DNA of 64,000 nucleotides, from the NCBI RefSeq assembly GCF_006345805.1, contig NC_043001.1:103974001-104038000 (forward strand). Direction: 5' to 3'. Of the stretch, positions 529 through 53,850 are shown in pieces. Source of the stretch: Octopus sinensis. Lineage: Eukaryota. A program made the translations under genes and the position numbers. Positions within the stretch are counted from its first letter, which is position 1; every line of letters starts with the position of its first letter. A model generated the notes under the pieces. It saw nothing but the letters and a program-made list of their open reading frames with translations. It was not told the origin of the DNA and ran no database searches.

Positions 529-835
529 GAAACGTGGAGTAGATGAAACAAAGGCGACTGAAGAAGGGAAATTTCCTTGTTTTGTATGTCCTGTACTCTA
601 TTTTATCGTTGTTTAAGAAAAATGTCCATTTCCTTGGTTTTGTGTTTAAGTTTTCGTTTCTCATTGTGTTCGACGTTTTTTTTTTTGGTTTTCCTGTACC
701 CATATATGCATGTATATATACATGTAGAGGTAGGTACGTACATATACGTATGTATATATGCATATGTTTTATTTATTAATTAATTTATTATATGACGGAA
801 CGCACGCATCCATTTCTAAGTAAGATTGTTCTTAA
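529..835 (+). mobile_element. 5'-truncated copy of repeat family A (carrier of the permuted HHR), ending at (TA)n
   Basis: Closely matches the reverse complement of 48315-48621. It starts at GAAACGUGG and contains CUGAAGA at 558-564. Confidence 0.8.
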
Positions 836-987
836 TATATATATATATTATATATATATATTATATATATATGTACAATTTAAAAATAGGATAAAATCTT
901 TATAAGAATTTATCAAGTAGTTAGCGTGAAAAACCTCATAAGAGAAACATCCATCAATTTTTCTCTTAAATATATTTATTTATATTG

Positions 988-3410: not shown

Positions 3411-3593
3411 CATCGGCAAAATACCTGAGGAATGAGAACCCAGGTTCAAAATTTCCCCAAGACACCTGATGAAGGCTGGAGGGTAAATCAGCCGAAACGT
3501 TGTGTTAACAATAAACAAGATGAAGACAGATATCTGTCAAATGTAAATAATGTAAATAATGTACATAATTCCTAATCTCTTAAATATAGAACT
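3411..3593 (+). mobile_element. Short Penelope-like repeat (family C) carrying a minimal HHR
   Basis: Recurs at 4703-4800 and twice at 22692-22975. It contains an HHR core. Confidence 0.75.
3461..3506 (+). ncRNA. Minimal type I hammerhead ribozyme
   Basis: GACAC-CUGAUGA-A-GGCUG(gaggguaaau)CAGCC-GAA-ACGU-U-GUGUU. Stem III is the palindrome ACGU, typical of dimer-acting minimal PLE HHRs. Confidence 0.75.
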
Positions 3594-47508: not shown

Positions 47509-48314
47509 CTCCCTCTTGTATAGAAGTGTACGGCTGCAGCGAAATTCATTGTTGGAGTTTCTTCTATCGAAGGCATTTTAACAAAAATGCTTCCGTAAAG
47601 ACGGTGGAAATATTGTCAATTTCCCCAAACAGGGACACAATTCAATTTTGAAACAATAACCAAAGCCCCTTCTCCGAAAGGGGGGGTTACGGTTTACAAT
47701 TATTTAACAAATGCAACACAGCAACGTTTCTCTGACGAGGAACCAACAAACGTGATTACAATAGTCAAACAGTAATAATAATAACAAAAAACCTTTTTAA
47801 TTTATCCCCATTTATGTGAAAGCACTTATTCAAGTTCAAGTCATTGATGCAATTTTATACGAATTGCTAATACACACACACACACATAATAAGGGTGAAA
47901 AATTGAATATTAATTTGATTAATATGAATTGAAAACCAGTGGTGTAGCATATAAGACCATAGCAGATCTTCCTCTAGCAAAAAGGATGACCAGTATTAAT
48001 GGCTCATCCCTGTTATATAAATAGTTTCACTTTAATAGTTTCACACATGCAAAGAGAAAGTAGGAGAAAGTATGGGGGTAATAGAAGGAGTAAACCACTT
48101 GAAATGAGAGAAGCAAATCGTAAAATATTGAGTTTTCTTGAATTTTTGCTTAATTGGGGGTCAAATTGAAAAAACTTTACATGCCATGACCCAATCGAAT
48201 CTACTTGGAAAAATCATAGGTAAATTCCAATTGAAGAAATTCTATATTGTAGAATTGTATTAAAAAGAAACATGGGAACAGGCAGAGAAAATCTGCCTTT
48301 TATCATAAGAGATA

Positions 48315-48790
48315 TATTAAGAACAATCTTACTTAGAAATGGATGCGTGCGTTCCGTCATATAATAAATTAATAAATAAATAAAACATATGCATATATAC
48401 ACACATATATGTACGTCCCTACCTCCACATGTATATATACATGCATACATGGGTACAGGACACCAAAAAAATGTCGAGCACAATGAGAAACGAAAACATA
48501 AACACAAAATCAAGGAAATGGACATTTTTCTTACACAACGAAAAAAAGAGAGAACAGGACATACAACACAAGGAAAATTCCCCTTCTTCAGTCGCCTTTG
48601 TTTCATCTACTCCACGTTTTCGAAGGTCAAGGCGATACATGACTTTAATGAAACAATCCTTCCCGCGAAAATCAAATTAAATAAGATTTGAGATTTTTTG
48701 CGGAGGGGTAAAAATGGTAACAAAAACAGGACAGTAACGACAGTACAAAATATAAACAGTAAAAGACAGGACAAGGACAATAACAGTGGA
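48315..48790 (-). mobile_element. Repeat family A (putative Penelope-like end) with permuted HHR
   Basis: Matches 529-835 and is distantly homologous to 53351-53640. Confidence 0.8.
48580..48656 (-). ncRNA. Candidate non-circularly permuted hammerhead ribozyme, copy A
   Basis: UUGUUUCAU uaaag UCAUGU A UCGCCU uga CCUUC GAAA ACGUGG aguag AUGAAACAA AGGCGA CUGAAGA A GGGG. Confidence 0.7.
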
Positions 48791-49025: not shown

Positions 49026-49079
49026 TTGTATGTATGTATGTATGTATGTATGTATGTATTTATCTATGTATATGTATAT

Positions 49080-49975
49080 GGTACGTTGTCTGACCGCATG
49101 AACTTTGTTTTCATGCGGTTCATCTTCAGACCTACTGCAGAACTTTTGATGTCGAGCTCCGTCAGCATGGTCTGAAGCTGATCCATGTTTTCAGCGATGA
49201 GTACGATGTCGTCAGCGAAACGGAGGTGAGTGAGGAGCTCGCCATTGATGTTGACACCACCTTGCCATTCGATGCCTCTGATGATCTGTTCGAGACATGC
49301 AGTGAAAAGTTTTGGGGATATTGTATCTCCTTGCTTCACTCCCTTCTCGAATGGTGATCGGCAGTGATGAAATAGAGGAGGTGAGAGAATATGTCTACCT
49401 GGGACATGAAGTAAATATGTGCCGGGATATCAAAAAGGAGATCTCACGGAGAGTAAGGGCCGGATGGAAGGCGTTCAATGGCATAAGGGATGTGCTCAAG
49501 GGAAGGTTGGACAGGACCACCCGCGCCAACCTCATTAACAGTGCAGTTCTGCTTGCAATGTTATATGGTAGTGAAACATGGGCTACCACAAAGAGAGAAG
49601 AGTAAAGACTGGTAACGGCTCAAAGAGCCATGGAAAGGTCAATGCTTGGTATCTCGTTGAGAGAGCACATAAATAACAAGATCATCAGAAAGAAGTCCGG
49701 CGTGAGAGATGTCATCGCAGAGTATACTCGCAGCAAGTATAGATGGGCTGGACACGTCGCCCGGCTCACCGATAATCGGTGGACGCACGCAGTTGCAGAG
49801 TGGTACCCGCGTGAGCGGAAAAGACCACCCGGAAGACCTCCACGACGGTAGAGTGACGATTTCAAGAGGACGATTGGGATCACGTGGATGAGAAAGGCGC
49901 GATCCAGAGAGGAGTGAACAGCGTGCTGTGACCAGCGGTGTCAAATGGACGCCTGACGGACTGGTCGGTCAAGGG
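49080..49975 (+). mobile_element. 5'-truncated, 5'-inverted RTE-clade LINE inserted in a TA-rich microsatellite
   Basis: Minus strand 49080-49350 encodes KGVKQGDTISPKLF...LRFADDIVL...[11 protein letters not shown]. Plus strand 49345-49955 encodes SRMVIGSDEIEEVREYVYLG...YGSETW...WAGHVAR...RPPGRPPRR. Confidence 0.95.
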
Positions 49976-53298: not shown

Positions 53299-53350
<52 letters not shown>

Positions 53351-53354
<4 letters not shown>

Positions 53355-53850
53355 ATAAATAAAAATATATGCATACATACAATATATATGTACGTACCTA
53401 CATCTACATGTATATATACATGCATATATAAATAATTATACGTGAGTACAGGATACCACAACAAGACGTAGAAACGGGAAAAACAAAAAAACAGTTACAG
53501 GACGTGCTACACATGGAAAAAACCCCCGTCATCAGCTGTCGCTAGTAAACTCAAGCATGTTTCGAAGGCAAGACAGAACACTAATCCACTAGGCCTTCCT
53601 GCGAGAGAATTAAAATAAAATTCCAAGCAGCAGGGCAAAATGAGTACGAACACGAACAGGACGTAAGAATAAAATTGCAAAAATAAAAATACATGTACAA
53701 AAAATACAAATAAATACAAAACGAGAAAATAAAAAGAGAATACGATACGGGAAATCAAACACACAAGAGGACGAACGAAAAAGCCTTTTTTCTGGCATAG
53801 ACGGAAGATACTGTGGCAGCGCGTGGAAGGCAGTCTTTTCACAAATATAT
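53351..53850 (-). mobile_element. Repeat family B (divergent relative of family A) between two (TA)n tracts
   Basis: Shares the gtacgtacctac..ctacatgtatata.acatgcata segment with family A, and the same upstream hairpin plus CGCRGGAAGG. Confidence 0.75.
53523..53592 (-). ncRNA. Candidate non-circularly permuted hammerhead ribozyme, copy B
   Basis: CUAGUGGAUU a GUGU U CUGUC uug CCUUC GAA ACAU gcuug AGUUUACUAG c GACAG CUGAUGA C GGGGG. Confidence 0.75.

Follow-up and report, generated by a model that had tools for sequence, protein, structure and literature searches.

How would a hammerhead ribozyme with its strands out of order complete its stem II, and what carries it through an octopus genome? 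The question is raised by a 77-nt motif on the minus strand of Octopus sinensis NC_043001.1, at positions 48656-48580 of a 64,000-nt stretch of that contig (the window, to which all coordinates refer). A preliminary description had presented the motif as a permuted hammerhead with stems I and III, an extra helix (here, helix X), a GUA triplet and a predicted cut at 48636/48635. Its letters were confirmed exactly on the minus strand, the architecture was borne out by covariation and by the coordinates, and the motif was found to reach 6 nt further 5' than described, to 48662. With good confidence, we read the stretch as one copy, likely inactivated, of a repeated motif that is predicted to fold as a hammerhead opened within its core, with stem II supplied by an upstream leader, and that likely cuts the transcripts of non-autonomous Penelope-like elements (PLEs) which, we infer, use Naiad-type machinery. 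This reading starts from four observations: the order in which the sequence blocks occur, how many copies there are, how the stems covary and where insertions end.

We follow the division of hammerheads into blocks S, G and C in PMC10085705 (Eckert 2023). Read from 5' to 3', the motif would present a stem II strand and a helix X strand; then a stem III strand, the cut and a stem I strand (S block); then the stem II 3' strand, GAAA and the second stem III strand (G block); and lastly the second helix X strand, followed by a stem I strand and CUGANGA. In the window copy, helix X pairs 48656-48648 with 48606-48598, stem III pairs 48642-48637 with 48617-48612, and stem I, of 7 bp, pairs 48635-48629 with 48598-48592, base 48598 being common to helix X and stem I. 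A17 is 48636, which places the predicted cut, C11.1 is 48622, and CUGAAGA occupies 48591-48585.

The motif belongs to a superfamily repeated more than 5,000 times in the 2.72 Gb, microsatellite-rich genome: a pattern of the G block followed by the core (CTTCGAAAC, 14-30 nt, CTGANGANGG), which itself fixed CTTC and NGG, had 5,504 matches, versus 2 for the reversed pattern. We fetched 70 of the first 100 places (30 delivered by the search and 40 picked for variety), which held 72 motif copies. After exclusion of 18 truncated or rearranged copies, the 54 that retained the upstream part were aligned with two copies from the window. With the stems of the preliminary description (stems I and III and helix X among them) and a trial closing helix, 86.9% of the cells in this 56-copy alignment were paired, compared to 78.2% in shuffles and 43-51% in slid controls. 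Changes on both sides of a pair numbered 226, versus 91.7 in shuffles, and none of 500 shuffles gave as high a count, in a control that ignores the relatedness of the copies and with stem II fixed by the search pattern. Both sides changed at five of the six pairs of stem I, four of six in stem III and eight of nine in helix X, which covaried within families A-F. The trial closing helix (GGAAGG with TTTTCC downstream) varied mostly on one side, and was dropped once the leader was found to pair with CCUUC.

When the motif was described with stem II left out, the descriptor matched 136 times in the window and the fetched loci and 0 times in 952 kb of block-shuffled sequence, most of the loci having been chosen for holding the motif; it also caught a lineage, CAGCC, that was met by chance in the flanks. 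A looser definition of stem I raised this to 149 hits in nine lineages. CUGANGA, GAAA and an NUH site are kept across the family, flanked by stems I and III, which covary. C11.1 is present in 147 of the 149 hits, the triplets are GUA, GUU, GUC, AUC and AUA (NUH being required by the descriptor), two lineages swap pair 15.2-16.2 to U-A, and stem III ranges from 4 to 10 bp. In the CAGCC lineage (loci L122, L159 and L032), stem II is made of GGCUG and CAGCC, strands identical to those of an ordinary type I hammerhead family found at 3466 in the window, a possible hint as to how the permuted form arose.

For stem II, the preliminary description had paired CUUC with the GGGG that follows CUGAAGA. 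This assignment is probably wrong: the duplex has an energy of 0.0 kcal/mol, and the downstream strand pairs poorly in six of nine lineages, whereas the leader GAAGG (48662-48658), located 5' of helix X, forms five Watson-Crick pairs with CCUUC at -4.6 kcal/mol. The leader helix was 93.9% paired, and invariant, in the 56-copy alignment. Over the 149 hits in nine lineages, cognate leader helices ending at C11.1 had a mean of 4.1 Watson-Crick pairs, compared to 2.3 for non-cognate combinations (permutation p = 1e-5), or 4.4 versus 3.0 when G-U pairs were counted (p = 5e-4). Family B varies in the spacer that precedes the G-run (A, C or TT, the last in 10/30), while its leader is unchanged. Stem II can be closed by G10.1-C11.1 via the leader. 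Thus, the stem II 5' strand likely comes from the upstream leader, and not from the bases after CUGANGA. A 3' hairpin that had been proposed as an alternative proved largely compatible with this fold, provided that A9 is left free; a conserved hairpin after the core beat shuffles in 0 of 15 representatives.

The closest known arrangement is type SGC, described in PMC10085705, where it is assumed that stem II must follow CUGAnGA directly. Rows of the HRIMA-1 alignment in that paper run from a stem III strand, the site, a stem I strand, a linker, a stem II strand and GAAA to a stem III strand, the I helix, a stem I strand, CUGAUGA, one base, a stem II strand and the I helix. The octopus motif has the same order of S, G and core, a 1-5 nt linker between stems I and II, a further helix adjoining stem I, a single base left unpaired behind CUGAnGA and an identical ring of strands. 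It differs in that the stem II 5' strand lies upstream of all other parts and the ends fall between the post-A9 base and G10.1; directly after CUGAnGA, family A offers only a weak 4-bp option. The fold is likely to be the type-SGC ring opened inside block C, between A9 and G10.1, a link that would then tolerate being open. We count the HRIMA-1 rows, with the same ring and other ends, as support. Stems I, II (the leader helix) and X would come together distally in a three-way junction, which would hold stems I and II to each other in place of the usual loop-loop contact. Since the motif breaks the assumption about the position of stem II, it is missed by current descriptors and by Rfam.

If intact copies cut after GUA, the resulting RNAs would begin at the cut, and insertions copied from them might end there. 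We mapped the 5' ends of 142 family A/C copies, anchored 73 nt past the cut and taken in list order; the cut site had been predicted beforehand, and the bin width of 12 nt was our choice. Approaching the cut from downstream, the number of 5' ends per copy at risk was 7/132 at +24 to +35, 14/125 at +12 to +23 and 25/111 at 0 to +11, and dropped upstream to 3/86 (-12 to -1), 2/83 and 2/81. Relative to the mean hazard of 0.038 in the other bins, the excess at 0 to +11 has p = 8e-13 (the 25 ends include one internal deletion and two neighbouring near-duplicates). In a count of landmarks that is free of alignment, over 147 anchor hits with 12 duplicates included, 26 copies had the core and G block without the S block or leader, and four had the core, G and S blocks without the leader. 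In a set sampled by pattern, the first bin held 10/72; counts in the 13 bins that followed were 0-5, a single later bin reached 9, and the alignment was confounded by (TA)n flanks. A sharp edge where the cut is predicted is consistent with templates starting at that point, and the profile suggests that the ribozyme sets the 5' end of the template RNA. Smaller clusters of family A/C ends at -145 to -156 (6/67) and -181 to -192 (6/57), also seen in a map anchored in the 3' tail, are possibly transcription starts.

The carrier has units of 765-838 bp in families A-D, the full non-coding family A unit being about 790-835 bp. Families A and B have no ATG open reading frame (ORF) over 93 aa, and among the ORFs listed none was seen to belong to families A-F. 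Copies differ in where their 5' end falls, some have inverted 5' pieces or form partial tandems with a spacing of 765-838 bp, and most of those examined are single. Relative to the cut, 17/30 copies have their 3' end at +276 and 21/30 at +268 to +276, mostly followed by (TA)n; in 5/30, the window copy among them, a tail of about 40 nt runs to +313 to +321. The window insertion spans -153 to +321, including a 3' tail of about 45 nt. Partial tandems, inverted 5' pieces, a fixed 3' end with an optional tail and microsatellite targets are all features of PLEs, and the carrier appears to behave like a non-autonomous member of that group. Reverse transcription would prime at a fixed point 276 nt downstream of the cut, on (TA)n targets, and the reverse transcriptase (RT) would either halt at the cut end or continue through uncleaved or re-ligated, possibly circular, RNA to give partial tandems. 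A search for the unit in sequencing records returned 19 rows with four organism labels that hold part of it, with no RNA record listed; the four runs inspected consist of assembled contigs. One cut-to-cut unit of 790 nt (L007:1576-2365, minus strand) folds better than 20/20 shuffles (z = -3.1), owing in part to a long palindrome, rich in AT, that lies close to where the element ends on its 3' side.

Naiads, a clade of PLEs, have (TA)n targets, partial tandems, inverted 5' pieces and a 30-40 bp tail (PMC8557442), and that paper credits them with no canonical hammerhead, only with marks named "HHR_core" and "HHR_half_core". We read the published Naiad consensus records by eye, without a script. 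Among nine records with whole 3' ends, the leader form was present in five (Ovul, Obim, Plae, the record preceding Plae, and Esco, in which stem II is imperfect), and in Naiad_Ovul, Obim, Esco and Plae it lies in the 3' untranslated region (UTR); the motif was seen in none of Omin, Dcar, Adux and Skow-1. Further passages of the supplement hold four more leader-form records and seven with the order C, S, G (type CSG), three of which directly precede the headers Naiad-2_Nbra, Naiad-3_Nbra and Naiad_Hcon. By host, again by eye, the leader form occurs in octopus, squid and an acanthocephalan, and type CSG in nematodes. The motif as read from the published octopus Naiad sequences had 483 matches in the genome, versus 2 for a control, and of 30 loci found with the C-terminal 68 aa of the ORF, 11 have it further downstream in the sense orientation and 0 in antisense. 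The units of families A and B lack the ORF, with an N-terminal GIY-YIG and a C-terminal RT, that would be expected of a Naiad, and ORF remnants were found upstream of the related GUGUC lineage only. We consider it fairly likely that Naiads of several animal phyla, together with non-autonomous satellites, carry active, non-circularly permuted hammerheads, including the form opened between A9 and G10.1. If so, permuted hammerheads would be common in animal genomes, which would explain why Naiads seemed to be without ribozymes. At one locus, a family A-like copy sits inside the ORF region of a Naiad remnant (L300:817-1068). The 3' UTRs of Naiad-1_Skow and one further record share a different conserved motif, with GAAAC and without CUGANGA (PMC8557442), which is possibly another structured RNA.

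The fold could instead be an ordinary type-SGC hammerhead in which stem II is made by CUUC and the G-run after CUGAAGA, or in which the G-run gives G10.1 alone, with the leader as an off-switch or distal extension. The zero duplex energy of CUUC with the G-run speaks against this, as does the median of 1 Watson-Crick pair for the own downstream strand in 6/9 lineages (1-2 pairs with G-U). Families A-F do retain the possibility of four downstream base pairs, two of them G-U, with 98% of cells paired; three lineages have 4-5 downstream pairs when G-U is counted, GATCC and TGCTC being cases in point, and the AGCAC leader may be without a G for C11.1. However, Naiad_Plae, Naiad_Esco and other published records, including the one preceding Plae, have no complementary G after the core, and the position of the G-run had been fixed by the search pattern; this arrangement seems to us quite unlikely. 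The same helices might also form between two copies, the loop of the hairpin made by X and III pairing with the flanks of the other copy to give an active dimer in a tandem transcript; this would make the knotted monomer unnecessary, and would be compatible with leader-supplied stem II. X and III do form a nested rod in the minimum free energy (MFE) fold, the elements occur as partial tandems, minimal PLE hammerheads have been proposed to act as dimers (PMC4209133), and a wide distance separates the end of the I helix from that of stem III in the crystal structure (PMC10085705). On the other hand, cleavage of individual type-SGC RNAs, 79-81 nt long, is nearly complete by the time they are transcribed (PMC10085705), and most octopus copies examined are single; a dimer appears possible, if rather doubtful.

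A further alternative, which we find very unlikely, is that the motif is a conserved structured signal or a relic that has ceased to cleave, and that the 5' ends pile up where the RT stalls. In its favour, the pile-up is absent from family B, and its peak lies at +6 to +8 and not at 0. Yet no catalytic position is lost as the stems change across nine lineages, and the structure would first confront an RT at +30 to +50, a stretch of low hazard, whereas the sharp edge sits at the predicted cut. Several other results weigh against cleavage, the leader fold or the Naiad connection, in addition to the limits of the search pattern and shuffle control given above. Family B has no pile-up (by eye, 0/29 copies at risk end at 0 to +11), with little truncation overall. 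The first 5'-end map, of 91 tail-anchored copies, was flat (2/31 at 0 to +11); its anchor, in the 3' tail, sampled a subset. Cleavage itself is a prediction from sequence and insertion ends. Leader and G-run are both near-invariant within families A-F and cannot be told apart there for that reason; five of the nine lineages are represented by 1-2 copies; lineages AGCAC and CGGCC have no leader excess; and across the nine lineages, helix X did no better than non-cognate pairs. When the window was scanned with Rfam, the 133 matches obtained at E up to 1 included no hammerhead and consisted mostly of microsatellite noise. Nested MFE folding did not outdo shuffles (z = 0.01 and -0.91), which is what one would expect if the fold is knotted. 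Only 1/45 upstream fragments in the genome hit RVT_1 (E = 8.5e-4, below the cut-off). Lastly, outside the ribozyme there is no sequence in common between the octopus Naiad loci and families A and B, except for the separate family A-like copy in L300, so that their use of Naiad machinery is argued from architecture and insertion traits only.

Other known systems resemble the predicted leader-closed hammerhead in part. Minimal type I PLE hammerheads (PMC4209133) also have CUGANGA, G10.1-C11.1, a base between positions 9 and 10.1, where one is commonly inserted, and a location near the 3' end of the element, but with canonical strand order and a weak stem III; here, the order is permuted and stem III has 4-10 bp. 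Non-LTR retrozymes (PMC7229834) are likewise non-coding, low-GC tandem units each with a hammerhead, and PLEs have been proposed as their helpers. They have canonical type I hammerheads, tandem units of 150-450 bp and demonstrated circular RNAs, unlike the octopus elements, which have a permuted ribozyme, longer units (765-838 bp in families A-D) and mostly single, truncated copies. In the pseudoknot-containing hammerhead (PMC11300833), a short stem II is similarly held to stem I by an extra Watson-Crick helix, but A9 and G10.1 are linked and the core order is canonical. The non-subscription literature compared (including 10.64898/2026.07.22.740005, on retrozymes and PLEs, PMC11300833, PMC13725137 and PMC7229834) held no report of permuted hammerheads in PLEs or of an opening between A9 and G10.1. 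Non-circular permutations have so far been reported almost only from metatranscriptomes, without a known host element; the present motif is placed by the thousands in an animal genome and tied to a clade of retrotransposons. It suggests a reason, open to testing, why Naiads appear to lack the hammerhead of other PLEs, and its numerous natural variants are suited to assay.

The window copy itself is a typical family member. It had been called sequence-divergent, which was not the case: a search with 121 nt around the motif gave 2,744 first-look candidates, and among the best 40 of these, which were scored, the window copy is 97-98% identical to the other 39. Within 120 nt, it has two internal differences from the commonest letter of the columns in the 30 best loci. 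The suspicion that the surplus A of its GAAAAC is secondary was upheld, as the A occurs in none of the 29 other best loci, and in this context 15 GAAAAC were found genome-wide versus 472 GAAAC (15/487). The A is not ancestral, and given its rarity and the high identity, the copy is best described as typical with a sporadic core insertion or homopolymer error; the extra A probably impairs it. The copy at 529, described as its sister, does belong to family A, but it begins 15 nt past the cut and is a half-motif only. The base inserted after CUGANGA had been taken as a sign of common ancestry with cores at 3461 and 32270; it is weak evidence and uninformative on ancestry, because such insertions are common in Penelope-type hammerheads (PMC4209133) and also occur in the HRIMA-1 alignment.

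Table 1. Features of the permuted hammerhead and related elements in the window.
Feature	Position	Strand	Basis
Whole family A insertion, 5'-truncated	48312..48787	-	BLAST and 3' end mapping
5' leader GAAGG, proposed stem II 5' strand (supplies G10.1)	48658..48662	-	Duplex energy, covariation; absent from the preliminary description
Helix X 5' strand, equivalent of the type-SGC "I" helix joining stems I and II	48648..48656	-	Covariation, comparison with HRIMA-1
S block: stem III 3' strand, GUA triplet, stem I 3' strand	48629..48642	-	Covariation, 5'-end profile
G block: stem II 3' strand CCUUC, GAAAAC with surplus A, stem III 5' strand	48612..48626	-	
Helix X 3' strand, abuts stem I	48598..48606	-	Covariation
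Stem I 5' strand and CUGAAGA core	48585..48598	-	Covariation
G-run, with a possible 3' hairpin; weak alternative partner for stem II	48570..48584	-	Not better than shuffles
Sister family A copy, 5'-truncated, without cleavage block and leader	529..840	+	
Family B ribozyme, same architecture, different stem I, III and X sequences	53529..53598	-	Within element 53350-53841

About 280 bp upstream of the family A insertion, a 121-aa frame at 49067-49429 (minus strand) looks like a fragment of a long interspersed nuclear element (LINE) reverse transcriptase; this adjoining fragment was not taken as the driver of the copy. At 3466 (+), 4750 (+), 22777 (-) and 32301 (-) lie minimal hammerhead cores of the ordinary type I, in which CUGANGA is followed by an inserted base, and Rfam is silent on them. 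The family B element on the minus strand has a GUU site, and about 180 nt of its downstream sequence match family A at 76% identity.
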